In this document: piece by piece, positions 886 to 16,502 of the stretch
Layout: every line of letters begins with the position of its first letter
How positions within the stretch are numbered: position 1 is the stretch's first letter
Assembly (NCBI GenBank): GCA_031285245.1
Contig: JAITWN010000165.1
Location: forward strand, 1 to 32,525
Reading direction: 5' to 3'
Origin: Chromatiales bacterium
GTDB lineage: Bacteria > Pseudomonadota > Gammaproteobacteria > SZUA-140
DNA: 32,525 nt
Translations under genes and position numbers: made by a program
The notes under the pieces: generated by a model
The model's database searches: none
What the model saw: the letters and a program-made list of their open reading frames with translations, nothing else
What the model was told of the DNA's origin: nothing

Positions 886-918
886 AAAAACCCGGCCTCT
901 GAATGCCGGGTTTTTTTT
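886..918 (+). terminator. Rho-independent terminator (possibly bidirectional)
   Basis: AAAAA-CCCGGC-ctctgaat-GCCGGG-TTTTTTTT. Confidence 0.85.
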
Positions 919-964
919 GGCGTTTTTCCGATTACTCTTCCCCACTCTCGCTCATGTTGTGGTC

Positions 965-1504
965 ATGCCTCAGGAAACTCCCGCACAGGATCTGCGTAAA
1001 CTCATCAAGTTCCTGATCGCCTCGGCGTTCTACTTTTTTGTTGGAACTGTCCATGGCGTCGCTCAGGTTATTCCTTCAGTGCGTATCTGGCTCGATTCGA
1101 TTGGCAGCCCCTACGGCGGCCCCGGTCACATGATCGATCCCTTAGCCCACGCCCATATCAACGTCGTCGGTGGTGTCGTGCTCTTGTGCATGGCAGTCAC
1201 TTATTACATGCTCACCACGCTGTCGAGGCGACCGATCTGGTCCATGCGGCTGGTCGATCATTCCTTCTGGTGGACCGCGCTCGGCGTTGCCGGCTTCTAT
1301 TCCACGCTGATGACCTTCGGCATTGTCGAAGGCAATATGCTGCTGCGTGGTGAAACCGAGGCTATCTATAAATTACACCGCTTCTACGGCCCCTTCATCG
1401 CTATCATCTCGACCGGGATGGGCGTGGGTTTTTGGCTGTTTTTTGCCAATATTTTCATGACAGCTAAATCCATTTACTCTACCCCCTCGTCCAAAACCGC
1501 ATGA
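965..1504 (+). CDS. Single-repeat (~4 TM) heme-copper oxidase subunit I-like protein
   Basis: AHAHINVVG...YY...RR..WS...FW aligns without gaps to the helix X-XI region of the CcoN in this window. ATG 965 is preferred because the track's TTG 917 lies in the terminator U-tract. Confidence 0.75.
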   Translation: MPQETPAQDLRKLIKFLIASAFYFFVGTVHGVAQVIPSVRIWLDSIGSPYGGPGHMIDPLAHAHINVVGGVVLLCMAVTYYMLTTLSRRPIWSMRLVDHSFWWTALGVAGFYSTLMTFGIVEGNMLLRGETEAIYKLHRFYGPFIAIISTGMGVGFWLFFANIFMTAKSIYSTPSSKTA

Positions 1505-2034
1505 TACTCGAGTGCGGATGCCCGTCGACTTATCCAGACTGGCACCAGCAAGATGTTGATCTGGGCGGACGCTGCATACACCAGGTTTCGGTTCCTATGC
1601 TGCTGCATATGCCGATTGGCTACGATGCACAGCTACGCCGGCAACAGGACAATATCGATCGGCTTGGACTTGAGGAGACCTGGCCCGGTCTAGCGCTGGT
1701 CCGGACCGGCATGCTGCGCGGCAATATCACCCGACTGCTGGAAAACACGGAATCGCCCTCCCATCACGTTTCCTGGCTGCCGCGCCCTTATCAGGTCTAC
1801 GCTCATTTGCATCATGGTGGGCTTGGCAGCGTACGCCCTGCACTGCGCGATATGCAGGCTCGGCTGCTCGATACCGGACGCATGCCTGGAGAATTACTGT
1901 TGGGACACTTGACCTGCACACGATGTGCAGATCAGCGCGGTGGGGAAAAGATACTTCTGCTCAGGCAGTGGCGCGAAAGCGCCGTATTACGCAAACGCAG
2001 AGAAAAAACAACCGGCGCTAGCGTGAAACGCTGA
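1501..2034 (+). CDS. Hypothetical soluble protein with CxC and CxxC motifs (possibly GyrI-like fold)
   Basis: ATGA overlap with the upstream gene; N-terminal ECGCP and C-terminal TCTRC; fold assignment is tentative. Confidence 0.6.
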   Translation: MILECGCPSTYPDWHQQDVDLGGRCIHQVSVPMLLHMPIGYDAQLRRQQDNIDRLGLEETWPGLALVRTGMLRGNITRLLENTESPSHHVSWLPRPYQVYAHLHHGGLGSVRPALRDMQARLLDTGRMPGELLLGHLTCTRCADQRGGEKILLLRQWRESAVLRKRREKTTGASVKR

Positions 2035-2392
2035 CCGGAAACTCCAGCACTCGCTCTTCAAGCCGATCACGCAGATACACATAGAGCGTCTGATCGCCAG
2101 AATCCAGCCGTACTGCCCGCCGATATACACCGATGTTGCCATCCTGAATCGCTTGCTGCCAGGGCGCATCGGGCTTGCTACGCAGAGACACCACCAAATC
2201 TTTGGCCGGTAAGTGATCTGAATTAGTGGCCACGATCATGAATTCATTCATTCCTTGTCGCAGAGGAATCGGGCGAAATTCGATCGTGATATTGATATCA
2301 CCCCATTGCTGAGACGGCAATCTCGACTGATCTCCATCATTACCGCAAGCAAGCAACATCAGCATCACCAGCATGACGACGAAAATCCTCAT
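2018..2392 (-). CDS. Lipoprotein with FixH/YtkA-like beta-sandwich domain (CcoH-like)
   Basis: Start at ATG 2392 (ATGA overlap with upstream stop) gives a signal peptide with lipobox LLAC. Pattern P.P...G.N.F...G.Y resembles YtkA/FixH domains. Located in a cbb3 cluster. Confidence 0.6.
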   Translation of the reverse strand: MRIFVVMLVMLMLLACGNDGDQSRLPSQQWGDINITIEFRPIPLRQGMNEFMIVATNSDHLPAKDLVVSLRSKPDAPWQQAIQDGNIGVYRRAVRLDSGDQTLYVYLRDRLEERVLEFPVSVSR

Positions 2393-2703
2393 GCTGGATC
2401 TCTCGCATCCGCAGCATTGTGCTGGAGATAATCTAGGATCATGCGTAACTGCTCGGGCGGAATCGGCCCAATGCGGGTCGCAATCCTGCGTTGTTGCATA
2501 CGCGAAACGATCGCTGGCCACTCCGACGCAACGCGGCTACCCGACTGAGGCGCCGCGTGGCAACCACCACAATAATAGAGATACGCCTTCTGTGGCTCAT
2601 GCGGCGCATAATTTTCCTGCGCCGACGGAGGAGGTCCTTCAGAGGTACATGCCGCGAGCATCAGCGCACCAACAATTCCGACAACCGCTCTAGCCTGCAT
2701 CAT
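2389..2703 (-). CDS. Monoheme cytochrome c lipoprotein
   Basis: Lipobox LAAC, heme motif CGGCH, and W...V.RM downstream motif providing a candidate axial Met. Confidence 0.8.
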   Translation of the reverse strand: MMQARAVVGIVGALMLAACTSEGPPPSAQENYAPHEPQKAYLYYCGGCHAAPQSGSRVASEWPAIVSRMQQRRIATRIGPIPPEQLRMILDYLQHNAADARDPA

Positions 2704-3161
2704 GGTTTGCCAGAAGCATCCTGCTTCGATTCGCTGCTCTCATCGCTTCTAGACTGCTTGTCGCTATCGAGTCTGCCCGCGATGTTGCTACCGTAGAACT
2801 GAACCATAAAATAAACAAAAGCACCGAAAACCAAGATATACGCGATCGCGGCACCAAAACCCCAATTGACCCACTCGCGCTCATATCCCGGGCGATCGCC
2901 CCAGAACGGAAAACTCAGACCTATCGCCACCAGAAACACCATGACGATAATCGCGATGAACCAGACTGGGACATTGCGCTGCGACTCAGGGATTCGGTCT
3001 ACCAGCTCCCAATCCTCAAGACCGCGCTTGGCGAGGCGCTCTTCATCCGAAGCATAACCAAAGTGATCATCCGGCTGCGCGCCCCACTCACTGTGCACCG
3101 GATCCAGATTGGGAGCGGGCTTCCCGCTTTCATCCTGAGATTGTTTCTCTTCGTCGCTCAT
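2700..3161 (-). CDS. 2-TM membrane protein, short paralog of 10770..11405
   Basis: Shares I.E.....P...FP.WG.RP and W...G....I.Y...F...V...V blocks with the 211-aa protein; translationally coupled on both sides. Confidence 0.75.
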   Translation of the reverse strand: MSDEEKQSQDESGKPAPNLDPVHSEWGAQPDDHFGYASDEERLAKRGLEDWELVDRIPESQRNVPVWFIAIIVMVFLVAIGLSFPFWGDRPGYEREWVNWGFGAAIAYILVFGAFVYFMVQFYGSNIAGRLDSDKQSRSDESSESKQDASGKP

Positions 3162-4501
3162 GCGCCTCCCTCAACCAGATGATGGACGCGGAAACTACGA
3201 CGCTCGCCATCTGGCGCGTTGAGATAAACCAAGAAAGGATGTAGCCCAGGCGCAAGACCAGCATTGATACGCAGATGGATATCCTTGCGACCGGCGCTCA
3301 AAAATTCGGCGTGATCCGCCTCTAACTGATAAGAACCCTCAGGCAGACCTTCGACGCTGACACTAATATCAACTGGCTGATAGAGCTTGCTCGCGATATT
3401 GATGCGGTAATCCCACTCGGCAGCATGCGCAGTCTCCGCGCGGTAAACCGTGTGTCGATAGGCATCATAAGACCACAAGCCCCAAGTGAACAACGCCACG
3501 CCAAACGCTGTCAGCATCGCTGCCCAAGGCGCACGCAACATCACCGAACCAACGTTGCCGCGTCGAGACGTCTGCGCGCCACTCTGCTCTCCGAACCCGA
3601 AACGCAGAAGACTATTGCCGGTCTTGCGCGCGCCGCGCACGGTGCTGCACGCAGTAATGCATTCACCACAGTTGATGCAGGCGTCATAAACCACCGTCTG
3701 CCGCGGATCAATGCCGATGAAGCAGGAGGTTTCGCAGAAATTACAACGCGCGCATTCATCCTGGTGGCTATTGTCATAGGCGATACGCAAGGTCTCACGT
3801 GTCTTAAAAGAATGCTGCCAAACACGATAGACACACATGAATCTGCACCAGAAGTGGCGCACAAACGCGATGTTGACGAACAGTATCAACACGAAGATGG
3901 TGTATATCCAATGCAGAGAGCCCGCGAGACGCTCATCGTGTTGGAACGTTACGAAATGCCACAGTTGTTCTGGAGAATAGAAATAGAACATCGGCACAAA
4001 CGCCGTCACCATTGCCGCGAGGAGAAAAACGCTACCGAGGATCGTCCAGTTGATCCACTTGTTTTTGCCAGAGGAAACTTTAATCGGCTTGCCATCCAGA
4101 CTGACCTCCGCGCGCTTACCAAGCAAGCGGTGCGTCATGTGATTAGCCCACTCAGCGAGCGTATTCTGCGGGCAGGACCAACCACAAAATGCTGTACCAA
4201 CTAGCGAATAAGTCATCACCAGCAGACTGGATAGCGCCAGCCATAAACCAATCACGATGTAGAAATCAGAAAACCAGATCTGCCGATCAAGGACAACGAA
4301 CGCACCATCCACCGGATCAATACGGAACAATCCGGAAACGGGGATCAGGATCGCAAGCAGAACTGTACCGATTTGGACTGCGCGGCGCCGGCTGTGCAAC
4401 TTGCGACCAGCCTTGGCATCCGCGCTGACAATGGGGATTTGCGACAGTGCCTTCGAGTAGTGCATGCCGCAAATACTAGCACGCGACGCATCATCTTTCA
4501 C
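3158..4501 (-). CDS. ccoG: CcoG/FixG-family membrane 4Fe-4S protein (cbb3 accessory)
   Basis: CGWSCP, CRFMC, CARCNFCETSC and CINCGECITAC motifs; multiple TM helices; C-terminal Ig-like segment. Confidence 0.8.
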   Translation of the reverse strand: MKDDASRASICGMHYSKALSQIPIVSADAKAGRKLHSRRRAVQIGTVLLAILIPVSGLFRIDPVDGAFVVLDRQIWFSDFYIVIGLWLALSSLLVMTYSLVGTAFCGWSCPQNTLAEWANHMTHRLLGKRAEVSLDGKPIKVSSGKNKWINWTILGSVFLLAAMVTAFVPMFYFYSPEQLWHFVTFQHDERLAGSLHWIYTIFVLILFVNIAFVRHFWCRFMCVYRVWQHSFKTRETLRIAYDNSHQDECARCNFCETSCFIGIDPRQTVVYDACINCGECITACSTVRGARKTGNSLLRFGFGEQSGAQTSRRGNVGSVMLRAPWAAMLTAFGVALFTWGLWSYDAYRHTVYRAETAHAAEWDYRINIASKLYQPVDISVSVEGLPEGSYQLEADHAEFLSAGRKDIHLRINAGLAPGLHPFLVYLNAPDGERRSFRVHHLVEGGA

Positions 4502-7131
4502 GAACCGGGCACGCTACGCACAGCATCGCCAAGCTGGGTTGCAGTGCGCACTTCACGGTCGAGCGGATTGACCGCAGAAAGCCGGGAAAGATACTGCGCA
4601 GCGAGCTCAGCATCACCGGTATCACGCGCCATTTGCCACAACATCCGCAGCGTATCGGCATGATCAGGGCGTGCGCGTAACAATGCCTCAAGCACCTGAC
4701 GGCGCTGTACAAATGGAACGCCACCGAGACTCGAAAGAACATTGTCTGCCAGAGCGAACCCCACCCAGCGGTCTTGCGGGTTCACCTCGAAAGCCGAGCG
4801 AATGAGCCGCTGTGCATCCGGCATATCGCTATTGATGCTTGCCAACCATGCGCGCAAGGCCAAAGCAGAGCCACTATACCCGCGCTCAAAATGACGCTCG
4901 TCCGCCGCATCAACACCAAGCTCTTTCATAGCGCTAGCTAGCGATGGGCGCTGCTGCAACAGCCACGACAACACCACATCGAGCTCGATACCGCCACCAT
5001 AACGCGCATGGGGCAAGCCGAACTCGATACGCGGCCACCATTCATCCTGCATGGGCCCCTCTGCGATCACCACTCGGCCGCAGTAGCGGCCGAGCCAGGT
5101 CCACAGACCTTCGCCACCGGTTTGATCAGCGCTCTGCGCCGAGCTCTCAGCGGATATTCTTTCCTGGACTGCACGCAGTCGTTCACGTGCATCAACACCA
5201 GACAAGCCGCCGACCATGGCGATGCGAAATCCATCCATGAACATCGCCGCATCTGGGAACACGTGCTCAAAGCTGCGCAAAACCGTTTGCAACGATTCAA
5301 TATCGAATTGATTCAGTGCCAGCCACTGCACAAAAACACCGCCCGGCGCGAGACGTGCGCGAGCACGCTCGAACTGCTGCACGGAAAGCAGCGCACTGCG
5401 CCCCACCAGATCAGGATGAAAAACATCGCCGACGATGACATCAAAGCGAGCGCTACTGACGCTGAGATAACGCCGCGCGTCATCACGCACAATCGTCGCA
5501 TAATCGCCCACATTGCCATTCACCGGCTTAAACCATAAGCGCGCAGCTTCGATCGCCCCTGCGGACAGCTCAACCGCGACACGGTCGAGAGCCGGATACC
5601 CGAGAGAACCCGCTGCCGAGACACCGGTTCCAAGTCCGAGGAAAAGTATCGAGTGTGGATCTGGGTGCAGTAACAATGGCAAGCGTGCCTGATTTTTCTG
5701 CAACTCCACCGCGGCCTGCTCGCTAGACGCATCCATACGCTGCAAATCACTCAGCAGAAGACGCTGCCCATCAGACTGCTCGATCACATGAGTAATCGCC
5801 ATAGCATCTTCATAGCGATAGAGATCATGACTTTCTTGCTGAGCAGGCATAAGTTTGGAAACCGGGGGGAAAACAGCAACTGGCGAGGCGAGCACAAGAA
5901 CAACTGGTAGCGCGAGCCACGTTACTCGTGAAGCCCACACCATTGCAGCTACCAACAGCGCCACCGCACCGACCACTATCGTCGCTGGCGTCCCAATCGT
6001 CGGCACCAGCAACAGCCCTGCAACCAATGCACCCAGCGCCGCACCAATCGAATTGATTCCATACAACAAAGGACCATGCGCACTGCCGCCATAGCGCTGA
6101 CTTAATAACGGCAGCCAGGAACCGAGCACAAAGGTCGCTGGTAGCGTAACAACAGCGAGTATTATTCCCTCGCTCCACAACGCTGCGGCAAGCGTGGAAA
6201 ACTCCTGGCGCTGAGCCCATGAGGAAATCCAAGGCAACGCATAAAGACTTGCGATACCAGTAGCCGCAGCCAGCATTGGCAGTACAGACAACCAATGCGA
6301 ACTCCTCATATGGCGCGCCAACAAACTACCAAGGCCGATGCCAAACAGATAAACCGCAAGGATCACTGCCATCACATATTCGGTGCGCAGCAACACCATA
6401 CCGTAGAGGCGAGTCCAGCCAACTTCGAGCAGAATCGCTGCAGCGCCAACTACGCCATATGCAAATAGCGCCAGCAGTGGTAGCGATAGCGCATCCGCGC
6501 TAGAAAGTGCAGAAGTATGTTCAGTACGCGCCCCACTCCAAGCCAGCAACGCTGCACCTCCCGCGACCAGAAGTCCTAGTGCTGCAATCCAACCGATCGA
6601 TGCCGTCCAACCGAACGCAGGCAGCAGCCACAATGGCAACAAGGCTCCAATCGCTGCGCCACAAGCATTGAACCCATAGAGCCGACCCAGCGCATGCTCG
6701 TCATCCGCGCCCATCGCGCGCAAGATCATGGGGAAGCCTGCCCCCATGGCAATCGCTGGCAATAGCATGAGGAATAGTAGTGCGCCCCCCTGCAAGAACA
6801 ACCAGGCGCTGAGCGACACATCAGGAGCAAAAACAGTCAGCGCTTTTTCCGCGTACCCAAGCAGCCAGGGCAGCACCAAAGCATAGAGCGCGATGGAGCC
6901 TTCGATGAAGGAAAATATCAGTAGCGGCTGCCGGCGACGTCCTAGCCAGCGTATGGCGAGCAAGCTGCCAAGACCAAGGCCCGCCATGAAAGCCGCAATA
7001 GTAACAACCACGCCGAAGATGCTGACTCCAAACTGCATCGACAGCATGCGCGCCCACAACACTTCAAACGCCAGACTAGTCGCACCAGAACCAGCATAGA
7101 GTACCGGAAGCAAGCGTCTCACCATGCTCAC
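4498..7131 (-). CDS. Fused multi-TM membrane domain / spermidine-synthase-like SAM-binding protein
   Basis: Internally duplicated TM region (SLAFEVLWARML / AILLEVGWTRLY; LYGFNACGAAIG / LYGINSIGAALG), then LFLGLGTG, VEL, DDARRYL and FDVIVGD motifs; helical TPR-like C-terminus. Confidence 0.85.
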   Translation of the reverse strand: MSMVRRLLPVLYAGSGATSLAFEVLWARMLSMQFGVSIFGVVVTIAAFMAGLGLGSLLAIRWLGRRRQPLLIFSFIEGSIALYALVLPWLLGYAEKALTVFAPDVSLSAWLFLQGGALLFLMLLPAIAMGAGFPMILRAMGADDEHALGRLYGFNACGAAIGALLPLWLLPAFGWTASIGWIAALGLLVAGGAALLAWSGARTEHTSALSSADALSLPLLALFAYGVVGAAAILLEVGWTRLYGMVLLRTEYVMAVILAVYLFGIGLGSLLARHMRSSHWLSVLPMLAAATGIASLYALPWISSWAQRQEFSTLAAALWSEGIILAVVTLPATFVLGSWLPLLSQRYGGSAHGPLLYGINSIGAALGALVAGLLLVPTIGTPATIVVGAVALLVAAMVWASRVTWLALPVVLVLASPVAVFPPVSKLMPAQQESHDLYRYEDAMAITHVIEQSDGQRLLLSDLQRMDASSEQAAVELQKNQARLPLLLHPDPHSILFLGLGTGVSAAGSLGYPALDRVAVELSAGAIEAARLWFKPVNGNVGDYATIVRDDARRYLSVSSARFDVIVGDVFHPDLVGRSALLSVQQFERARARLAPGGVFVQWLALNQFDIESLQTVLRSFEHVFPDAAMFMDGFRIAMVGGLSGVDARERLRAVQERISAESSAQSADQTGGEGLWTWLGRYCGRVVIAEGPMQDEWWPRIEFGLPHARYGGGIELDVVLSWLLQQRPSLASAMKELGVDAADERHFERGYSGSALALRAWLASINSDMPDAQRLIRSAFEVNPQDRWVGFALADNVLSSLGGVPFVQRRQVLEALLRARPDHADTLRMLWQMARDTGDAELAAQYLSRLSAVNPLDREVRTATQLGDAVRSVPGS

Positions 7132-7199
7132 GCGCGAAGCCCGCTCAGCGCATCACATCTCTCACACCACTTCGCATTGGGAAAAACGCGCACGACAAC

Positions 7200-7574
7200 T
7201 CAGAAGGGAAAAAACCAGACAATTGCCACCACAGCATGAACAATGGCAAGCGTCACGCTGAAGCCAGCAAAGATCGTATGGGCGACAAAGACCTTCTTGC
7301 CATAGATTGCCATTGCAACACCAAGCCCTGCCGCCGTCAGCAAACATATGAGCAGAGCAATCCCCATGACAAAAAGAATGAGATGTTTGCGCTGATCAGG
7401 AATCGCATTGCGCAATTCCGCCGCACGCTGCGCCTCGGTGAATGCTCTGATCACTTGCCCATCGCCGGAAGATTCTGCCGCGAGAACAGTTGCACCAGAG
7501 AAAGAGAAAAATAAAGGCATCATCACCAACACAAGGGTGATACAGCAAAATCTGAGCTGTGCCAAAAAACGCAT
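7200..7574 (-). CDS. Small membrane protein with His residues in or near TM helices
   Basis: N-terminal signal/TM segment plus two TM helices; KHL, VAHT and IVHA; lies in the co-directional operon. Confidence 0.7.
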   Translation of the reverse strand: MRFLAQLRFCCITLVLVMMPLFFSFSGATVLAAESSGDGQVIRAFTEAQRAAELRNAIPDQRKHLILFVMGIALLICLLTAAGLGVAMAIYGKKVFVAHTIFAGFSVTLAIVHAVVAIVWFFPF

Positions 7575-7584
7575 GATGCTGTGC

Positions 7585-7842
7585 TTATCGCTGCTCGGCT
7601 TCGGGGTTCACTTGTTCTTGAGCCCCCTTTTCACTCTCAGGATGACGCAGCGTCCACCAATAAAGCACCGCCATCAAAATAAATGGCACCATCAATATCA
7701 GTAACAGGAAAATGAAGATATACCAGATGGTATCAATGGTGACATGCAGATAGCGGTAGCTATCGAATGCAAAAGCCGGCGCTGGTAATAAAGCCAATAG
7801 AACGAGCGGCCAACGTGACAGGAACTTCAACAACATGATCAT
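7585..7842 (-). CDS. Small membrane protein
   Basis: Signal-peptide-like N-terminus (AFA), one strong TM helix, ATGA overlap with the upstream gene. Confidence 0.7.
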   Translation of the reverse strand: MIMLLKFLSRWPLVLLALLPAPAFAFDSYRYLHVTIDTIWYIFIFLLLILMVPFILMAVLYWWTLRHPESEKGAQEQVNPEAEQR

Positions 7843-8921
7843 TGCTGTTTAGTACTCCGCTCCAGATCGGCCGCGATTCGAAAACCGAAAAAATCCGACG
7901 CATACTGCGGCCAAGAATAATTACGGTGATAATTCGCTGTGGAAAATGGGTCACTCTTCCATGAACCACCGCGCAATACTTTGTAGCTTCCCTCTACTGG
8001 CACCAAATCGACAACTTTCATCGCTTCATCAAGCGGCGTGGTTGCCTTGGCGACATGTCCTTGGAAATATTCCGGCGATGCATCGTTACCGGGATAAGGC
8101 TGAAAACTGTCAGCCGTCCACTCACTGACATTTCCAGCCATATCCATGACACCAAACGGGCTGCCGCCTTCAGGGAACTTGGTCACTTCACTCGTCGCAC
8201 CGACGGTATAGTAAGTATTGAGGCGAGCAGTATCCATCTCATCGCCCCAAGGCCAGCGACGACCATCGGTGCCGCGGGCGGCTTTTTCCCATTCAGCCTC
8301 TCGCGGCAAACGCCCGCCTGCCCAAGCAGCATAGGCACCAGCGTCATGCCAGGAAACCATCGTGACGGGATGCAGCGCCTGCCCCTGGCGAAACTTCCCG
8401 CCATCCCAATTGAGTGGAGGACGGTGCCCAGTGGCAGCGACAAACCGTGCATATTGTGCATTGGTCACTGGATACTTGCTGATCTCGAACGCCGCGAGCG
8501 AAACGCGATGCTGCGGAGTGTCTTGTACAGCGCTGCGAGAACGATCGGTACCCATCAGAAACTCGCCAGCGGGAATGGTAATGAGCGTATCAATTTCAGC
8601 CCATTGCTCCGCGCTCAAAAGCGCTTCTGCCTCAGCCACCGTATAAGAGTTATACGCAGCAGTGGGGTGCTCATGCTTTTCATGACGAGACAGTTCTTCT
8701 CCGGAGGCGCGTAGGCGCGAGCCCACTTCAGAGAGATCATAGCCCGCTTTCGAGCGCATCTCGTCCATACGCTTGGAGCCGATCTGCAGAATGTGGAGGC
8801 TTCCCCCCACCATAGCCAATGAAATGCAGGTAATGATCGTCGCAGCCAGATAACGCTTACGGCGTTGACGCACACTCTCATCGTTCACGCTTGAAACCCC
8901 GGGCGGATAACTCACACTCAT
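7839..8921 (-). CDS. Membrane-anchored formylglycine-generating-enzyme (FGE-sulfatase/SUMF1/NirV) family protein
   Basis: IPAGEFLMG, PVTNAQY, HPVTMVSW, RLPREAEWEKAARG, DMAGNVSEW, RGGSW and GFR motifs; N-terminal TM helix. Confidence 0.9.
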   Translation of the reverse strand: MSVSYPPGVSSVNDESVRQRRKRYLAATIITCISLAMVGGSLHILQIGSKRMDEMRSKAGYDLSEVGSRLRASGEELSRHEKHEHPTAAYNSYTVAEAEALLSAEQWAEIDTLITIPAGEFLMGTDRSRSAVQDTPQHRVSLAAFEISKYPVTNAQYARFVAATGHRPPLNWDGGKFRQGQALHPVTMVSWHDAGAYAAWAGGRLPREAEWEKAARGTDGRRWPWGDEMDTARLNTYYTVGATSEVTKFPEGGSPFGVMDMAGNVSEWTADSFQPYPGNDASPEYFQGHVAKATTPLDEAMKVVDLVPVEGSYKVLRGGSWKSDPFSTANYHRNYSWPQYASDFFGFRIAADLERSTKQQ

Positions 8922-9385
8922 CCGCTTTTTTCCCCAGAATCAGGATGATCAGATTTACTGCGATAGACCTCTTCTCGCGGCAACCGCCCATAGGTACGTT
9001 TGATAATAATTTCACCAAAGACGCCACCGAAAGCTGCCGCCTCAACCGCCAAGATCACAAACATTATCCAGAAAGGGAAATACAGAAGCTGAGTACCAAA
9101 TGGGGGTTCAGTAAAATAGAGATAGTTGGCATAGCCGATGCTGCGCACGATCAACGGCGGAAAATAGCATAACCATTTTCCACCCAGACCAAAAATCATT
9201 GCTACTACGACGCCAGAAATCAGCGGGACAACAAATATATTGACCATCCACAGCGCTGAAAAAGTATCAAGACCTCGCCACAGTTCAATATTCACTCCAA
9301 GTAAAATATCGCCAAGGTAATTGACAGCACAGCCAGCAAGCAGTGCGATAAAACCTGTGAGATTACGCTTGAATTGCTTGTTCAT
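8918..9385 (-). CDS. Hypothetical ~4-TM membrane protein
   Basis: Hydrophobic helices; ATG 9385 overlaps the upstream TAA (TAATG), so it is preferred over the track start. Confidence 0.75.
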   Translation of the reverse strand: MNKQFKRNLTGFIALLAGCAVNYLGDILLGVNIELWRGLDTFSALWMVNIFVVPLISGVVVAMIFGLGGKWLCYFPPLIVRSIGYANYLYFTEPPFGTQLLYFPFWIMFVILAVEAAAFGGVFGEIIIKRTYGRLPREEVYRSKSDHPDSGEKSG

Positions 9386-9873
9386 TAGCAGTCGTTCTCG
9401 CTTCCTGTCAGTTTGGCGCAACGCGCACGGCGAACTTCATCCAGATCCCAATCGCGAACCTTGAGACTGGCCATATACGCCGCAAGTGTGCGTCGCTCAC
9501 TCTCAGGAAGGTGGGCAAAAGAAGGCATTTGATATTCTTCTTTCAATCGCGAAGGAAGAATTTGCTGGGGATTCTGCGCGGAGAAATATTCAAAAAACCA
9601 TTCCTCACTGTGGATGGATCCCATGCCATCCAATGCGGGCGCTGGCACAGCTTGCATAAGGTTGCGCACTGTCCATAGCGTGTGGCATTCCTTGCAGTTC
9701 TGCTGCCGGTAAATTTCCCCAGCCTCGTGAAGTAAAGCAGCGGACGCCGTCGTGTAAAAAGGAATTTCACGATCGTGTTCGCTGCTCTCCCGCTGACGCA
9801 GAAAGTTCCAGAGCATTGCCCCCAGAACAACTACTGCGATGAGGAGATAAATCCTCTTCTCACCTGTCCTCAT
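9385..9873 (-). CDS. Membrane-anchored monoheme cytochrome c (CcoO/NorC-like)
   Basis: N-terminal TM helix, CKECH, APALDGMG...EW and MPSF (axial Met). Confidence 0.85.
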   Translation of the reverse strand: MRTGEKRIYLLIAVVVLGAMLWNFLRQRESSEHDREIPFYTTASAALLHEAGEIYRQQNCKECHTLWTVRNLMQAVPAPALDGMGSIHSEEWFFEYFSAQNPQQILPSRLKEEYQMPSFAHLPESERRTLAAYMASLKVRDWDLDEVRRARCAKLTGSENDC

Positions 9874-10153
9874 GCTGCTTCGCGTGCTGCGCCTTCTCCT
9901 GCGCCTTCTCGCGCAGAAATTCTTCGCGGCGCTTAACCTGCTGTGCTAATACCTCACGGCTTTTGGCATACTCCTCAGGAGACATTTTGTCCTTGTCGTT
10001 CTCATCGAAGACCAGGTATTTGATGTCTTCATCAAACTGCTCATTCTTATAAGCCCAGCGCAAACCGTACATGGCAGCAAAAATAATTAACCCACCAGCG
10101 ACCAGCCATATATAAATGGTCCATCCGTCTGGAAGTGATTGTAAGAAATTCAT
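9860..10153 (-). CDS. ccoS: CcoS/FixS-like cbb3 maturation protein with charged C-terminal extension
   Basis: Single TM helix followed by WAYKNEQFDED, similar to the CcoS W...GQFDD motif; SD GGAGG upstream. Confidence 0.65.
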   Translation of the reverse strand: MNFLQSLPDGWTIYIWLVAGGLIIFAAMYGLRWAYKNEQFDEDIKYLVFDENDKDKMSPEEYAKSREVLAQQVKRREEFLREKAQEKAQHAKQHEDR

Positions 10154-10165
10154 GATTGCCTCCTC

Positions 10166-10498
10166 CTAGAAAAGTCGGCCATATAACAATTGTAAAGCAC
10201 CAAACCCAACCGCAACAAACATACCGGCGACTATCATGAGAAATAATAGCTTCTCTCCAAACTTCAACCCGCCGCTCGCTTTGGAACTGAGGAAAAAACG
10301 AAACACGATAGCCGCGAAAACCGTAACCCCAATTAACATGAAGAAAAAGATGCCAATGCTGAATCGGTAACTTTCCATACCCTCGATCGTCCAATAGGAC
10401 GACGGGCCGCTCGCTTGCGCTTGTTGCTGTACCGTAATTACCGCGGAGTCCAATCGCGCCAGCAGTGACTGAAGAGGTTCGAACAGAGCCAATTTCAT
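10166..10498 (-). CDS. Hypothetical 2-TM membrane protein
   Basis: Two hydrophobic helices linked by GGLKFGEK; co-directional with neighbours; start codon uncertain. Confidence 0.7.
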   Translation of the reverse strand: MKLALFEPLQSLLARLDSAVITVQQQAQASGPSSYWTIEGMESYRFSIGIFFFMLIGVTVFAAIVFRFFLSSKASGGLKFGEKLLFLMIVAGMFVAVGFGALQLLYGRLF

Positions 10499-10546
10499 GG
10501 TGAGAAAGGAAACCAGAAAAGAAGAAATAAACCTTCAGGGGTATAT

Positions 10547-10580
10547 AAAAAAACGATGCCGCTTTTTCAAGCGGCATCGT
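10547..10580 (-). terminator. Rho-independent terminator after the core oxidase genes
   Basis: Minus strand ACGATGCCGCT-tgaaaa-AGCGGCATCGT followed by a T run. Confidence 0.85.
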
Positions 10581-10610
10581 CTTGGTTCACACAGGAAACG
10601 CTAACCAACC

Positions 10611-10742
10611 TTACTCGTTGTCCCGGATGTGCGGAGCGCCTTTGTCATATTTATCTACAAAAAAGCTGTAAATAAAAGGCACAATGAACACAACAATAAT
10701 CGGGAGCAAGAGCACAAGCGGAGGATTATCGACATCAATCAT
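10611..10742 (-). CDS. 43-aa single-TM microprotein MIDVDNPPLVLLLPIIVVFIVPFIYSFFVDKYDKGAPHIRDNE (not in ORF track; CcoQ-like size)
   Basis: Translated by hand. SD GGAGAG upstream; fills the gap between the 211-aa gene and the terminator. Confidence 0.75.
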   Translation of the reverse strand: MIDVDNPPLVLLLPIIVVFIVPFIYSFFVDKYDKGAPHIRDNE

Positions 10743-10769
10743 GACTGTTAACTCTCCAGGTTATATTAA

Positions 10770-11405
10770 TCAATGACCATGATGAACTGGCTGCCAACGA
10801 TAGTTGGGCAGGCGCTTCACCGCAATCATTACTGCCAGACAAAAGTAGGTTACGTAGAAGATATCGATGGTGTAGCCTTTGTCCCACCAGGGCTGCTTAC
10901 GCTCACGCGTACCATCCGCCTTCCAGTTACCCTCGAAGTTCGCCAGCAATACTTTGTAGCCGACGATGGTGTACTCTTCGAGATCCACCCGCGAGTTTTG
11001 CAACTCAATGATCTGATCTTTGACCAGGCGCAATTCGTTCATCGACAATGGATGGCGAACCTGCAGGGCTTCATACTTCGATTGGCCTTCACGAACAATC
11101 CTTACGATCTCAGCCATTGCTGCCTGATCACCGCCCGCTGCCTGCGCAGCTTGAACACGAGGACTATCCATCGCCGCCACATATTCAGCGTAAATTGCGG
11201 CCTGCGGACGTTGGCCCCAGAGCGGGAATGTCATCAGAAACGCGCTGATGATAGTCAGTCCCAGCAGCCATACCACAGGACGCGGCAGACGATTGTTGTC
11301 TTCGGTAATGCCGCCAAGCCCTTCAGCCTCCCACAGCTTGCGGGCCTTATCATTTTGCTCCTCATCAGAAAGACTGAAGAGCGGGTTGTCAAATTTCCAG
11401 GCCAT
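10770..11405 (-). CDS. Heme-less 2-TM protein with CcoP/FixP N-terminal-like anchor
   Basis: GITEDNNRLPR followed by a TM helix resembles the FixP_N GIeE.dNplP motif; no CxxCH; directly downstream of ccoO; strong SD. Confidence 0.8.
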   Translation of the reverse strand: MAWKFDNPLFSLSDEEQNDKARKLWEAEGLGGITEDNNRLPRPVVWLLGLTIISAFLMTFPLWGQRPQAAIYAEYVAAMDSPRVQAAQAAGGDQAAMAEIVRIVREGQSKYEALQVRHPLSMNELRLVKDQIIELQNSRVDLEEYTIVGYKVLLANFEGNWKADGTRERKQPWWDKGYTIDIFYVTYFCLAVMIAVKRLPNYRWQPVHHGH

Positions 11406-11420: not shown

Positions 11421-12371
11421 TTATTTCAGACTCAGAACAAAGTCAATCAGGTAACGCGCATCGCTCTTAGAAGCGGGCTCAGGCACTTCCGGCGGATAAA
11501 TCCGCTTGCCGGAGGCAAAGTCGCTATAGTCAGCGCGCCACTGGTTGTAGTTGATGACATTGCCACTCGCATCCTTCTCACCCCACAGATAGTCATAGCG
11601 GGGCATGATGGAGTGCGGTTGCACCAAGCGCGGATTGAAGAAGTGCATCATCATCCATTCGCGTGAAGAGTTACGTGAACCGACATGCAACAGATCAGGC
11701 GCTTTACGATCCGAACCAAACGCAGTTGGTGATTCGCTGTTGAAGTCACCGAGACGTGGCGGCGCACCAAACGACTGCCAGTCCTGGGTCTGCTCAGGCA
11801 ACAGCGTGTGGCACCACCAGCAGCCTTCGCGCACGAACATAATCTTGCCCGAGCCGACGTGCTGCGTGTCTTTATCGCTGACCGCCTTCAGAACCATATC
11901 CGGCGTCCAACCATGGGTCGCGGTGGCGTTTTCGATGTAATGAATGGGCTCACCATTCCACCGCCCCTCAGTCACCACAAAAACCGCACCTTGAGCTTGA
12001 TTAGCTTGACCAATCTTGCCTTTATCCAAGCTCAGATCTTCAACCCCCTTACCCATGATTCGGGGATGCCGGATCGAACTGGTGAAAGGTACGCCTGCGT
12101 CGTAAACATAGGCATAGGTCTCGTCGATCGGCGCGCCGGTTTTTGGATCGTTCCGGAGTACAACCGTCAGAGGCTTGTTATCTCCATGCAGGAACGGATC
12201 TTCAACCGAGAAACCACCCACACGACCATACATCAAGCCTTTTCTCAGACCCATTTCGGTTGAGGACACCTGCACAATGTCCAGGCTGGGCATGTACAGT
12301 GTGATCATCATTGATCCACCGAGCGCGATACCGAACAATCTCGCGCCAACTTTATATTCGCGGAATGCCAC
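11421..12371 (-). CDS. ccoO: cbb3-type cytochrome c oxidase subunit II (CcoO) with extra N-terminal periplasmic segment
   Basis: REGCWWCHT, GSDRKAPDLLHVG and HFFNPRLVQPHSIMPRY are CcoO signatures; GTG start with SD GGAGG. Confidence 0.88.
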   Translation of the reverse strand: MAFREYKVGARLFGIALGGSMMITLYMPSLDIVQVSSTEMGLRKGLMYGRVGGFSVEDPFLHGDNKPLTVVLRNDPKTGAPIDETYAYVYDAGVPFTSSIRHPRIMGKGVEDLSLDKGKIGQANQAQGAVFVVTEGRWNGEPIHYIENATATHGWTPDMVLKAVSDKDTQHVGSGKIMFVREGCWWCHTLLPEQTQDWQSFGAPPRLGDFNSESPTAFGSDRKAPDLLHVGSRNSSREWMMMHFFNPRLVQPHSIMPRYDYLWGEKDASGNVINYNQWRADYSDFASGKRIYPPEVPEPASKSDARYLIDFVLSLK

Positions 12372-12412: not shown

Positions 12413-13819
12413 TTAGCGCTCGTACGCAATCTCGTGGGGCAGACGGCCCGCCGGGATTACAGTACCTTCGCGCGCAGTCATCCACATGTTGTAGAGCCAG
12501 ACGAGATTTCCGGTGAAAACCATGGTGCCGCCCACCCAACGCGCGATCATATACGGATGCTCCGCAATCACGACGTCAATGTAAGGAACCTCATAGATCT
12601 TACCTGCGCCCTGGATCAAACCTGCAATGGTCATCGAGATCCAGTAGATCGTGAAACCGATCAGCAGGAACCAGAAATGGAAGTTGGCCAGTGCGAGCGA
12701 ATACAACTTGCGGCGCATGATGGTCTGCAAGCCGTAGTAAACTGCAGCTGCTTCCAAGAAGGTGGAGAAGCCAAGCAGCGCAAGGTGAGCATGCGCCACG
12801 ATCCAGCCAGTACCATGGATATACCAGTTGATCGCACGGGTCTGCTGGAAACCACCCTGCATGTTGAGCGGAATCGCCATCAGCACGCCGGTGATGGTGA
12901 ATTTGATCTCAACGTTGTCGACAAAGAAACGCCACTTGCCCGTCATGGTGAGCAGCAGGTTCGACACGAAAGCGATTGCCGGCACCAGAATCAACACACC
13001 TTCCACTGAAGCGAATGACTTGAGCCACTCCGGCAACGGAGAAGACATCAAATGATGCGCAGCAGGCGTGGAGTAGAACACCACCACTGACCAGAAGTGC
13101 AAGTGACCGATACGGTGTGAATAGAGCGGATTACCCGTAATCTTCGGCACTGTATAGTAAGCAATAGCTGCAGCAACTGGTGTAATCCACAAACCGAGCA
13201 CATTGTGTGCGAACCACCAAGTCAGATACGCCTCGGTGAGCCCGGTGAGCTGGAAGTACTCCGGCAGGTTACCTACGAACAGCACGATGAACAGCATAAA
13301 GACCGCAGAAGCGAAGAACCAGTTGGTAGTGTAGATACCCTGAGTACGACGCTTGATAACCGTCATCCAAACGTTGATGCCGAGCGGCACAATGACACCA
13401 AACAGGATGATGAGGTCAATGAACCAAGGGAAGTCGGAGTATTCACGGCCAGAACTCATACCCGACCAAAGACACGTCAATGCTATCGACAAACCTGCAT
13501 TCCAGACGAAACAGTTCCAAACACCGAGTTTTTCAGACCAGAGCTTGGTATTACCGAGGGCTGGCGTGATGTACATCATTGCCATCGCGAAAGCCATCGA
13601 AATCCAGCCGAAAATCACGGCCATCACATGCACCTGACGCATGTGCCCAAACGAGAACAGTTCCGAACCAGTAACAAAGTCAGGGAACGCAAGCTTGGCG
13701 GCATTGAACGAGCCAAGACCCGTCCCAATAACAAACCAAACGATGGAAGAAATGCCAAAATATACGGCGGATGAACCCCTTGGGATATCCTCGGTTTTGG
13801 CGAACAGGTACTTGAACAT
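12413..13819 (-). CDS. ccoN: C-family (cbb3-type) heme-copper oxidase subunit I, divergent
   Basis: All six His ligands present (RQVH, WWFAHN, AAHH, AHAH); helix VII Tyr in YSTPAAHH has the C-family spacing; REY, YYTVPK and LYS..HFW motifs. Confidence 0.93.
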   Translation of the reverse strand: MFKYLFAKTEDIPRGSSAVYFGISSIVWFVIGTGLGSFNAAKLAFPDFVTGSELFSFGHMRQVHVMAVIFGWISMAFAMAMMYITPALGNTKLWSEKLGVWNCFVWNAGLSIALTCLWSGMSSGREYSDFPWFIDLIILFGVIVPLGINVWMTVIKRRTQGIYTTNWFFASAVFMLFIVLFVGNLPEYFQLTGLTEAYLTWWFAHNVLGLWITPVAAAIAYYTVPKITGNPLYSHRIGHLHFWSVVVFYSTPAAHHLMSSPLPEWLKSFASVEGVLILVPAIAFVSNLLLTMTGKWRFFVDNVEIKFTITGVLMAIPLNMQGGFQQTRAINWYIHGTGWIVAHAHLALLGFSTFLEAAAVYYGLQTIMRRKLYSLALANFHFWFLLIGFTIYWISMTIAGLIQGAGKIYEVPYIDVVIAEHPYMIARWVGGTMVFTGNLVWLYNMWMTAREGTVIPAGRLPHEIAYER

Positions 13820-15372: not shown

Positions 15373-15900
15373 TCAACCGACCTGCTGCCCCCGATCTTCC
15401 TGCCGCAATTGCACCGACATCACTCGTGTGAGCGTGGCATCCAGCTCATCGTAAAGCAATCTGCCCGCACGCTTGAATTGCACGACTTGGTTGCGATCGA
15501 TGACAAAAGTCCAAGGGTCCCCCATAACCTGGAAGGCTGTAAACGCCTCGGGATTGCGATATTGGTCCATGTGCAGGAAGAGTACATCATTCTGGTACTT
15601 TTCCATGATGCCCTTGAGCATTTGCAACTGCACATCGCAGACTGTGCAATGGCCTGGCGTTGCGAATTCAAGTACGACAGGCTTACCTGCCGCCAGCGCT
15701 TTATCAAGAGAGTACTGGTACATCCTTTCGTCAGGATAACGATAGGTCGTGATGAGACTGAAATCACCGCCAACATCAGCGAGAGTCTTGGTAGTTAGGG
15801 AAGGCGCGACAGAGCCTACGGTGACGGACTTTTGTACATCACACGCTGTCAGTGAGAACACCGCCAGGATACCCGCTAACGTCAAAAAACGTTTGCTCAT
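15373..15900 (-). CDS. Thioredoxin-fold lipoprotein (CxxC)
   Basis: Lipobox LTAC; KPVVLEFATPGHCTVC; GDPWTFVID (cis-Pro region); ATGA overlap at 15897-15900. Confidence 0.85.
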   Translation of the reverse strand: MSKRFLTLAGILAVFSLTACDVQKSVTVGSVAPSLTTKTLADVGGDFSLITTYRYPDERMYQYSLDKALAAGKPVVLEFATPGHCTVCDVQLQMLKGIMEKYQNDVLFLHMDQYRNPEAFTAFQVMGDPWTFVIDRNQVVQFKRAGRLLYDELDATLTRVMSVQLRQEDRGQQVG

Positions 15901-16445
15901 CCCTTGCGCCCCCACCCTGGATCTTTTTCCCAACCCATGCAGGTACGAAAAATATTGTAGCCCCAGATCATATTAGCCAGCAGAACCAGAGATCCGAAAA
16001 TACCCAGCGCCCCCATTAGTGGACGGATCATTTTTTCCACTTCATCCGGCGCGTGCAACAAACTCTGCGTTCCGCTGATTATTCCAGCCGTAGTAAACAT
16101 GATTACCATTCCAAGCAAGCCTGTGTTGTGAATCCAAAAATGGACTTTCACCAGACGCAGGCTATGAATTTCGCGTCTTACTAGGCGCGGAATGAAATAA
16201 TACACAGCACCAAAAATCGCCATCTCCACCCAACCCAGCAAGTTGACGTGAGTGTGAGCGCGCACGATCAACTCTCCGCCCATTCCTGCGCGCCCATGAA
16301 CAAATTGGCGAATCTCTGGAATACCGCCCATCAGCGCGCCCCAGGAAAAACCGATGATGCTATATATGATGCAGGCATAGACAAACAGCAGCGTATAACG
16401 TGTGTATTCCTTGTCGATCGCCCAGGGTTCATTGACGCTGCTCAT
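15897..16445 (-). CDS. Single-repeat (~4 TM) heme-copper oxidase subunit I-like protein
   Basis: AHTHVNLLGW...AVYYFIP...RR..HS...HFW aligns without gaps to CcoN helices X-XI; ATG 16445 has SD AGGAG. Confidence 0.8.
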   Translation of the reverse strand: MSSVNEPWAIDKEYTRYTLLFVYACIIYSIIGFSWGALMGGIPEIRQFVHGRAGMGGELIVRAHTHVNLLGWVEMAIFGAVYYFIPRLVRREIHSLRLVKVHFWIHNTGLLGMVIMFTTAGIISGTQSLLHAPDEVEKMIRPLMGALGIFGSLVLLANMIWGYNIFRTCMGWEKDPGWGRKG

Positions 16446-16502
16446 TTCCGCTCCTGTCTTGCTACACACTTAAATCAAAGTTACAAACCATAATCAAAAA
16501 TT

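Follow-up and report, generated by a model that had tools for sequence, protein, structure and literature searches.

Among the closest described relatives of the gene region treated here are the 'distal' cbb3 oxidase clusters of iron-oxidising bacteria. Iron oxidisers have two forms of cbb3 oxidase. The accessible parts of Zhou et al. (2022) and McAllister et al. (2020) assign one of them to the subtree that Ducluzeau et al. (2008) called 'distal', and describe it as highly expressed; as far as these accounts go, it is a highly expressed terminal oxidase of neutrophilic iron oxidisers. The distal cluster of Sideroxydans lithotrophicus ES-1 is likewise reported as expressed, in the accessible portion of its description. 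Here we analyse a 32,525-nucleotide stretch of DNA from a Chromatiales bacterium (assembly GCA_031285245.1, contig JAITWN010000165.1, positions 1 to 32,525 of the forward strand), which is called the window throughout, and in particular two membrane proteins encoded in it, A (211 amino acids, aa) and B (153 aa). Our reading, which we hold to be probable, is that the window contains the complete conserved region of a 'distal'-type cbb3 (C-family) oxidase, that A is a heme-less third subunit of the type of the CcoP membrane anchor, and that B is a short-loop hairpin copy wired to a CcoG-like maturation module.

Two published accounts come nearest to this region. In the accessible part of the Tenderiales preprint, an identical gene order is given for Candidatus Tenderia electrophaga (Figure 2B legend, genes 2-26, the cbb3-1/cbb3-2 region); those in the places of A and B are left unnamed, the two truncated CcoN paralogs described below appear as 'truncated CcoN', and the authors term the region 'a sort of alternative complex IV'. 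The Ferrovum JA12 paper, in the sections that are accessible, describes subunits I and II only, and proposes that the 'missing subunit III' has its substitute in a cytochrome c nearby. The available text of Emerson et al. (2013) describes 20 mostly hypothetical genes common to Sideroxydans ES-1 and Mariprofundus PV-1, a suite that may or may not be the cluster of the window. For the canonical enzyme, the accessible text of Steimle et al. (2021) places the CcoP helix near transmembrane helices 8 and 9 of CcoN and the CcoH helix at helix 9, with CcoH cross-linkable to both CcoP and CcoN. A literature search for FixP_N (PF14715), or for truncated, CcoP-like or missing CcoP, returned no relevant account; Ducluzeau et al. 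(2008) may describe the subunit composition.

The gene region in the window is conserved, and its kind is found among iron and sulfur oxidisers of the Gamma-, Beta- and Zetaproteobacteria. It contains a heme-less hairpin derivative of the FixP_N anchor, which occurs in three related families, here called A, B and M. Family M is already domain-tagged in databases, and none of the three is discussed in the searchable literature. All the genes of the finding lie on the minus strand, and the open reading frames (ORFs) of A and B were confirmed at the coordinates given below, where TM1 and TM2 are the first and second transmembrane helices.

10770..11405, minus strand: protein A, 211 aa, heme-less two-helix transmembrane hairpin with a FixP_N-like N-terminus, candidate third subunit; an ORF with 1774 database homologs, all 'hypothetical'
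11205..11315, minus strand: A residues 31-67 (block 1, FixP_N-like), G-G-I-x-E-D-N-N-x-L-P, TM1, F-P-L-W-G-Q-R-P; from invariant columns and hhalign to CcoP, B and M
11301..11303, minus strand: codon of A Glu35, invariant in 31/31 A sequences and aligned with the invariant E50 of the canonical CcoP alignment
10890..11204, minus strand: A residues 68-172, the 105-aa insert, a predicted periplasmic helical domain with a small beta-hairpin (AlphaFold2 model); missing from B and M
10812..10877, minus strand: TM2 of A (residues 177-198), with the motif Q-P-W-W-D-K-G-Y just before it (block 2); the motif is common to M
2700..3161, minus strand: protein B, 153 aa, heme-less two-helix transmembrane hairpin and paralog of A, its two blocks being joined by a 5-aa linker; an ORF with 952 database homologs, all 'hypothetical'
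2994..3086, minus strand: B residues 26-56, strongly conserved and presumably cytoplasmic, W-G ... F-G-Y-x-S-x-E-E-R ... R-G-L-E-D-W-E; from invariant columns
2889..2993, minus strand: B residues 57-91 (block 1), I-P-E-S-Q-x-x-V-P, TM1, F-P-F-W-G-D-R-P; from BLASTP, hhalign and the block scan
2985..2987, minus strand: codon of B Glu59, in the motif I-[PS]-[ED]-S-Q, with Glu in 106/120 and Asp in 10/120 B homologs
2790..2873, minus strand: B residues 97-124 (block 2), W-x-N-W-G-F and TM2; aligned with Q-P-W-W-D-W-G-Y and TM2 of M

Relationship of A, B and family M

The initial annotation had aligned A and B without gaps in two blocks. The first of these (A 33-67, B 57-91) stands as described: it is gapless, 10 of its 35 residues are identical, and its ungapped BLOSUM62 score is 56. 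Each block was slid across every window of 27,705 stop-to-stop ORFs (at least 40 aa) from the window's own genome. For block 1, A and B are each other's best non-self match, with 56 compared to a next best score of 37 for B's block and 29 for A's, which is far above chance. BLASTP of whole A against B gives a gap-free match of 58 residues (A 10-67, B 34-91; 15/58 identical, E 9e-6 as a single comparison), which reaches about 25 residues into the soluble N-terminal part. In the profile-profile comparison that had been proposed as a check, hhalign of the A family against the B family, using alignments of 31 sequences each, gives 89.9% (E 1.7e-6) over 41 columns. When the same ORFs were searched with hmmsearch --max, the hidden Markov model of each family ranked the other protein as the top non-self match (E 0.04 and 0.0088). 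A whole-genome profile search with A and B, in which only 4-5 candidates were scored, gave no cross match.

The second block (A 173-196, B 97-120) is less secure. The count of 7 identical residues in 24 is correct, and the score is 26, but unrelated ORFs score higher, at 40, 37, 35, 33 and 31 with B's block and 35, 33, 32, 31 and 30 with A's, and hhalign of A with B left the block unaligned. On its own, block 2 is therefore at chance level. It is credible solely through family M, which carries the QPWWDxGY of A and aligns with B over both blocks. The lengths given for the linker between the blocks, 105 aa in A and 5 aa in B, follow directly from the residue numbers.

Family M consists of heme-less, FixP_N-only two-helix hairpins of about 110-135 aa. 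Among 120 further genomes sampled from this class, a single one yielded a catalytic subunit CcoN of intermediate type (58% identical), at a locus designated L204. This is a compact version of the cluster, with the gene order cytochrome c, truncated CcoN, small membrane protein, CcoN, a short CcoO (173 aa) and a 114-aa M. The M protein of L204 has the gene position of A, after CcoO, and a short loop like that of B. It starts D-G-I-x-E-G-N-G-x-I-P-W-W, its first helix ends F-P-W-G as in A, and its second helix starts Q-P-W-W-D-x-G-Y, again as in A (BLASTP of M against A, E 0.002). It is without the insert of A and without the long conserved N-terminal segment of B. Given that compact clusters place M at the position of A, A can be regarded as an M-type anchor with a 105-aa periplasmic insert, or M as A minus a domain.

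M against A gives 94.7% by hhalign (E 5.9e-8), and M against B gives 91.9% (E 7e-7) over 79 columns that span both helices. Four genomes that have the large cluster were searched with a profile of M, and in three the A gene is the sole match (per-genome E of 1e-4 to 1.2e-3). B was not found with the B profile in G045 (98% complete), the one genome with M instead of A that was searched for it. The M family has 208 database homologs, most of which carry a precomputed FixP_N tag; a few are named at source 'N-terminal domain of cytochrome oxidase-cbb3, FixP' and the others are 'hypothetical'. Because M bridges A and B, the relationship between the two, block 2 included, rests on three pairwise links. 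It is concluded that the sequences support A and B being distant paralogs.

The proteins are heme-less, as first described. The motif CxxCH is found in 0/120 A homologs, 0/120 B homologs and 0/120 M homologs (0/360 over the three families), and neither A nor B has a match to a cytochrome c family in Pfam. This indicates that A, B and M are FixP_N-type anchors without cytochrome domains, and not CcoP.

Likeness to the CcoP anchor

As a reference we used 28 canonical CcoP sequences from the class sample. The N-terminal columns that do not vary among them are H, D, E, P, P, W and W, followed by a helix ending P-G, and the typical pattern is Glu, N-N-P-L-P-x-W-W and a helix ending Y-P-G. Two CxxCH motifs are present in 28/29 extracted canonical CcoP. 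The Pfam family FixP_N (PF14715) has a curated gathering cut-off of 24.9 bits, and the canonical CcoP of the class sample give 62 matches to it at 49.5-91.7 bits.

By hhalign, A matches the 28 canonical CcoP at 82.5% (E 9.8e-6), and the Glu and N-N-x-L-P line up in this match. In the A family, 28/31 members match FixP_N at E<=0.01. In the M family, all 31 aligned members do so at the same threshold, and M of L204 scores 26.2 bits, which is above the cut-off. Within the window's own genome, which is 87.7% complete, A is the only FixP_N match under E 0.1; the other match, at E 0.44, falls in a frame interrupted by a stop. For window B, no match to FixP_N was found at E<=0.1.

Twelve members apiece of CcoP, M, A and B were put into a single L-INS-i alignment, in which the Glu, the Pro, TM1 and [FY]-P-x-x-G are in register. 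A retains the Glu, N-N, L-P and F-P-x-W-G, without the W-W. B retains Glu or Asp, the Pro, one Trp and F-P-x-W-G. A second register scores alike. The earlier suggestion of a CcoP-like N-terminus thus divides into two parts. For A it is supported directly, by FixP_N and by CcoP, so that the N-terminal segment of A appears to be FixP_N-like. For B the likeness is supported indirectly, by way of A and M. Both helices of the hairpin start in a P-W-W-like manner, and part of the signal is therefore repetitive. As a separate observation, these helix starts and the two registers hint at an internal repeat or a permuted arrangement.

AlphaFold2 was used to model both proteins. The model of A, from a 31-sequence alignment, has a mean predicted local distance difference test score (pLDDT) of 68.7, with helices at 42-63 and 177-198. 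The insert is predicted with greater confidence, with pLDDT 85-91 over residues 70-150, and consists of four helices and a beta-hairpin. Foldseek with the whole A model found nothing in the PDB at E<=0.001, and when VIA-align compared it with 48,161 chains, the highest Z was 5.6, for generic helical hairpins. Because both searches used the model as a whole, a known fold may still exist for the insert by itself. In the model of B (mean pLDDT 61.8), residues 39-48 form a short helix, the transmembrane helices span 66-82 and 100-124, and the loop is 15 aa long. Hydropathy agrees with both models. The C-terminal tail of A is positive (three Lys and Arg, no Asp or Glu), which fits a hairpin with both ends inside and the insert outside.

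The oxidase cluster and its inheritance

The other genes and features of the region are as follows.

12413..13819, minus strand: CcoN, 468 aa, catalytic subunit of a 'distal'-type cbb3; COX1 E 1.4e-77, distal clade in the tree
11421..12371, minus strand: CcoO, 316 aa, monoheme, with a large extra region before the heme motif; FixO match at residues 174-266 only
10611..10742, minus strand: unannotated 43-aa ORF with a single transmembrane segment, directly 3' of A; tblastn E<0.01 in 78/80 loci
10550..10583, minus strand: terminator-like hairpin with a 15-pair stem, then a T-run, closing CcoN-CcoO-A-43aa
10166..10498, minus strand: tm110, 110-aa protein with two transmembrane helices, first gene past the terminator; related to the C-terminal part of B-like hybrids
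3158..4501, minus strand: CcoG-like ferredoxin-type membrane protein, 447 aa; TIGR ccoG 3.2e-30, under the cut-off; its stop overlaps the start of B by 4 nucleotides
2389..2703, minus strand: monoheme cytochrome c, 104 aa, with a CGGCH motif and weak cytochrome c family matches; its start overlaps the stop of B by 4 nucleotides
2018-2521, minus strand: x167, 167-aa protein, longest ORF; overlaps the gene of the 104-aa cytochrome c (2389-2703, minus strand) by 133 nucleotides
15897-16469, minus strand, and 917-1504, plus strand: truncated CcoN paralogs, 190 and 195 aa; they cover COX1 profile positions of about 304-411 only, and the H-x-H motif is kept in both

In the reading order of the minus strand, the genes are CcoN, CcoO, A, tm110, a FixS-like protein (97 aa, a weak assignment), a membrane-anchored monoheme cytochrome c (162 aa) and a 167-aa membrane protein, followed by an FGE-sulfatase-family protein (360 aa), two small membrane proteins, an MFS/spermidine-synthase-like fusion (877 aa), the CcoG-like protein, B, the 104-aa cytochrome c and x167. 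On the 5' side of CcoN there are a diheme cytochrome c, a monoheme cytochrome c, the first truncated CcoN paralog and a thioredoxin-like lipoprotein, and the second truncated CcoN paralog lies downstream on the opposite strand. Both truncated types are conserved neighbours of the cluster, and one also occurs in the compact cluster L204. The true start of x167 is probably further downstream than that of its longest ORF, since tblastn matches elsewhere start at about residue 40-60. From the FixS-like gene through x167, 7/10 junctions overlap, five of them by exactly 4 nucleotides, including MFS-CcoG, CcoG-B and B-cytochrome c.

The CcoN of the window scores 225 bits with the NCBI/TIGR ccoN model, far under the cut-off of 583, and is therefore a divergent C-family enzyme. 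Residues H64, H205, Y249, H255, H256, H343 and H345 do not vary among the 19 distal and 15 canonical CcoN that were compared. We take these to be the six His ligands and the cross-link Tyr of helix VII (Y249). With these His and Tyr residues in CcoN, and a monoheme CcoO that has a FixO match and a single CWWCH motif, the enzyme has the features of a C-family heme-copper oxygen reductase. A quick tree gives a fully supported split between distal and canonical CcoN, with very long branches, and places L204, on a long branch, in the distal group. The window's genome has one full-length COX1-family gene, which is the CcoN of the window, and two truncated copies. No cytochrome c oxidase other than the distal enzyme was found in this genome; a cytochrome bd oxidase is encoded on another contig. 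The 316-aa CcoO has about 140 extra residues between its membrane anchor and its heme motif, and the CcoO of L204 (906-1427) has 173 aa. The long CcoO and the insert of A co-occur in the same type of cluster.

The initial annotation had divided the genes into a core part and an assembly part, and this division has a physical basis in the window, namely the terminator-like hairpin after CcoN-CcoO-A-43aa. The hairpin at 10550-10583 has a folding energy of -28.8 kcal/mol (z -7.4), and 0/200 shuffled sequences fold as well. A comparable hairpin with a T-rich tail was seen in 37/77 loci by a crude scan without a control. The predicted core unit is CcoN-CcoO-A-43aa, closed by this hairpin. The 43-aa ORF has no Pfam family and one segment resembling a transmembrane helix. 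Its product is a candidate for a fourth small oxidase subunit. B is separated from the core genes by the hairpin and about 7.5 kb.

In a pattern scan with each species represented by one genome, 213 relatives of A were found. The counts of loci given here use the best 80 of these, many of which are cut by contig ends. They come from metagenome-assembled genomes (MAGs) labelled Chromatiales, Candidatus Tenderia, Gallionella, Ferrovum, Nitrosomonadales, Candidatus Nitrotoga, Zetaproteobacteria and others. Fifteen genes are collinear across these loci. Present in the greatest number are A (80), CcoO (79), CcoN, the FixS-like gene and the 162-aa cytochrome c (76 each), FGE (74) and tm110 (72), followed by tm167 and s85 (69 each), s124 (68), MFS (67), CcoG (59), B (57), x167 (53) and the 104-aa cytochrome c (41). 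The FGE-sulfatase-family protein (E 7e-57) and the 877-aa MFS/spermidine-synthase-like fusion (4498-8921, minus strand) are thus constant members of the cluster, at 74/80 and 67/80 loci.

A adjoins CcoO in 79/80 loci. B is found directly after the CcoG-like gene wherever a locus holds both, which is 57/57 in the best-80 set and 68/68 in a second set, from metagenome loci. At one rearranged locus (L191), the block CcoG-B-x167 is intact and the rest of the cluster is inverted. At another (L020), CcoN-CcoO-A are present and the other genes are absent within 10 kb downstream.

Inheritance was followed in the 36 genomes of the window's order, with A present in 31 and B in 32. Among the genomes of this order that are at least 90% complete (n=25), 22 have both A and B and three have neither. 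The three genomes that are discordant for A and B are 66-89% complete. There are two sequence subtypes of A and two of B, and they co-vary across genomes. Both can be seen even within a single genus; in genomes G129-G155 the scores are about 360-400 or 236-265 bits for A and about 204-274 or 130-154 bits for B. In several genomes of the second subtype, B is on the strand opposite to A, as at L191. The pairwise distances of A show their closest co-variation with CcoO (partial r 0.55) and CcoN (0.43), in an exploratory analysis in which related genomes are not independent.

Possible roles of A and B, and known systems

We read A as the third subunit because its anchor module and its place in the gene order are those of CcoP, because no other gene accompanies CcoN-CcoO as constantly, and because its best distance co-variation is with these two. 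The N-terminal cytoplasmic segment and TM1 of A would share descent with the FixP_N anchor that ties CcoP to CcoN. A would then dock on CcoN-CcoO by means of this module, with Glu35 presented at the cytoplasmic face, and electron entry would be left to CcoO and the separate monoheme cytochromes c of the cluster. The corresponding Glu of CcoP is reportedly at the entrance of the proton channel, a placement said to come from Buschmann et al. 2010 and later mutant work, and Glu35 may have a similar role. The third subunit that was thought to be missing is probably A.

B, as the second, short-loop copy of the hairpin, is inherited with A and appears wired to the CcoG-like maturation module. While cofactors are being inserted, or afterwards, it may bind A itself or a surface of the CcoN type, and it would act as a CcoH-like assembly partner or stand-in, and not as an electron carrier. 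Its role could be that of an assembly-stage stand-in or partner, an extra subunit or a partner of CcoG, and the evidence does not separate these three.

Several results weigh against this interpretation of A and B. Window A itself scores 20.6 bits with FixP_N (E 3.6e-4; 22.7 bits in six-frame translation), which is under the cut-off of 24.9 bits. In the B family, 9/31 members match FixP_N, at E 0.033-0.1 and amid matches to unrelated transmembrane families, and comparison of B with canonical CcoP by hhalign gives 2.5%, with no direct link in the FixP_N register. For M against CcoP, hhalign prefers another register (59.6%), with the FixP_N register on the CcoP N-terminus at 17%. A combined profile of M, A and B against the CcoP N-terminus gives two nearly equal registers, at 80.6% and 78.5%. 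The second of these (E 1.7e-5) is that of FixP_N, and the first places the hairpin helices on two helices of gammaproteobacterial CcoP. Because the two are so nearly equal, part of the signal is generic, arising from a Trp-rich helix start and a transmembrane helix. When solved structures were searched with the profiles of A and B, only coiled-coil or transmembrane noise came up and no CcoP chain, and all the alignments are shallow, with an effective number of sequences of 1.65-2.2. The proposed topology has as its basis only the positive C-terminal tail of A and the analogy with CcoP; the charges of B are not decisive. The distance co-variation of B is weak (0.28 with A, 0.23 with tm167, 0.19 with CcoN and 0.17 with CcoG) and names no partner. 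There are also rare natural hybrids (P0282, P0283 and P0267), in which a B-like N-terminal segment (F-G-Y ... R-G-L-E-D-W-E) is followed by one helix and a tm110-like C-terminus (BLASTP of tm110 against the three, 2e-11, 8e-6 and 1e-6). On the single long contig with a hybrid (L116, hybrid at 8531-9034), the neighbourhood is unrelated (DUF4142, LysR) and has no oxidase genes. The N-terminal segment of B therefore also occurs far from oxidase genes, and is not oxidase-specific.

Of the alternatives, two concern B. The first is that B is a permanent extra subunit of the mature oxidase, sited beside A on CcoN or on the periplasmic domain of A. We regard this as possible, though on balance unlikely. 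The strict co-inheritance of A and B in the most complete genomes and the co-variation of their subtypes are what it would lead one to expect, as is the fact that the strongest of B's weak distance correlations is with A. B was also not found in G045, whose M lacks the insert, and this would fit a contact between an invariant loop of B and the insert of A. Against this, the terminator-like hairpin and about 7.5 kb lie between B and the core genes, the gene is tied to the CcoG-like gene and not to CcoN-CcoO-A, and L020 has CcoN-CcoO-A with no downstream genes within 10 kb.

The second alternative takes B off the oxidase altogether, as the membrane subunit of a separate module with the CcoG-like protein, the 104-aa cytochrome c and the 167-aa protein, which would serve in copper handling or transmembrane electron transfer. 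We regard this, too, as possible but on balance unlikely. The start and stop overlaps of 4 nucleotides join MFS to CcoG, CcoG to B and B to the cytochrome c, B follows the CcoG-like gene at every locus that has both, and CcoG-B-x167 stays intact when the remainder is inverted, at L191 and presumably in the several genomes where A and B are on opposite strands. However, overlaps of 4 nucleotides are common across the cluster and so single out no partner, and the distance co-variation of B with CcoG is weak. Moreover, B keeps the FixP_N-type elements (Glu or Asp, Pro, helix and F-P-x-W-G) that accompany CcoN-CcoO in its relatives.

Two further suggestions for B were rejected or given less weight. 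The proposal that B and the 104-aa cytochrome c form a split CcoP is unsupported, since the 51 clusters found with the B profile (E<=0.001) are all of at most 172 aa and include no cytochrome c fusion, CcoP or A. A pairing of B with the downstream truncated CcoN was down-weighted because a truncated CcoN of this type also occurs in the compact cluster, in whose genome B was not found. In the protein atlas, B falls in its own unnamed clusters only, and has no usable named match.

A different alternative concerns A, namely that it is an assembly factor or loosely bound accessory like CcoH or CcoQ, and that the mature enzyme consists of CcoN and CcoO only. Small membrane proteins in or beside canonical operons can be assembly factors: CcoQ is so described, and CcoH is placed at helix 9 of CcoN, in the accessible parts of the literature. 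We consider this improbable, given that A has the anchor module of a true subunit, lies inside the core unit on the 5' side of the terminator-like hairpin, and is the most constant neighbour of CcoN-CcoO (79/80 loci). Nor does Pfam find FixH or FixQ in A: FixH (PF05751) has no match in A or B at E<=0.1 and is not among the families listed for the 31 A and 31 B members, and FixQ (PF05545) has no match in A, B or the 43-aa ORF, its best match in the genome (E 0.39) being on another contig.

A more far-reaching scenario can be proposed as speculation, with little expectation that it is correct in full. In this, heme-less FixP_N hairpins such as M, A and B would be the original third subunit of cbb3 oxidases, and CcoP would have arisen by fusion of such a hairpin to a diheme cytochrome c. 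The hairpin would have been duplicated in the large cluster of iron oxidisers, where A gained a periplasmic domain for docking of free cytochromes c. B would have become a mimic that holds the site of A on CcoN, with its carboxylate at the mouth of the proton channel, while copper is loaded by the CcoG-like module, and would then be exchanged for A.

Finally, it is very improbable that the likeness between A, B and CcoP reflects convergence or composition (Trp-rich helix starts and hydrophobic helices) and not common descent, because, although block 2 is at chance level, two registers on the CcoP N-terminus score alike and B weakly matches many unrelated transmembrane families in Pfam, the gapless match runs about 25 residues into the soluble segment, block 1 tops all other windows of the genome (56 vs 37 and 29), three independent pairs of families reach 90-95% by hhalign, and the order of motifs is collinear in all four families, whose genes share one conserved cluster.

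If A is the anchor, then the distal oxidase has a defined core of three or four subunits (CcoN, CcoO, A and perhaps the 43-aa protein), in which the diheme electron-entry domain is predicted to be replaced by separate cytochromes. It would also constitute a natural test of what the CcoP anchor does beyond holding heme, including the role of its conserved Glu. B is a concrete candidate for an assembly step specific to this class of enzyme. The relationships described here provide names and markers for three large 'hypothetical' families, with 1774 (A), 952 (B) and 208 (M) database homologs.

The comparison with known systems can be made at three levels. The first is with CcoP (FixP). In the register of the four-family alignment, A and B share with it a presumably cytoplasmic segment with the Glu (Glu or Asp in B), the Pro (N-N-x-L-P in A, x-x-x-x-P in B) and a transmembrane helix ending [FY]-P-x-x-G, and the genes of A and M sit after ccoO. 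They differ in that A and B have no cytochrome c domains or CxxCH, and in that their second transmembrane helix comes after the anchor helix and not before it. A has a predicted 105-aa periplasmic domain that is not a cytochrome, and its FixP_N scores are about 21-23 bits. The second comparison is with CcoH (FixH). B holds the slot directly after the CcoG-like gene, as CcoH does in canonical ccoGHIS, but has no sequence likeness to it (no FixH match at E<=0.1), has two helices, and has no periplasmic domain. The third comparison is with the distal cbb3 clusters of iron oxidisers and Candidatus Tenderia; the gene order is that listed for Candidatus Tenderia electrophaga, and the relatives found here include Tenderia, Gallionella, Ferrovum, Nitrotoga and Zetaproteobacteria MAGs. 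What the present analysis adds to these is the relationship to FixP_N, the paralogy of A and B, and the 43-aa ORF, which go unmentioned in the accessible portions of the Tenderiales and Ferrovum accounts.

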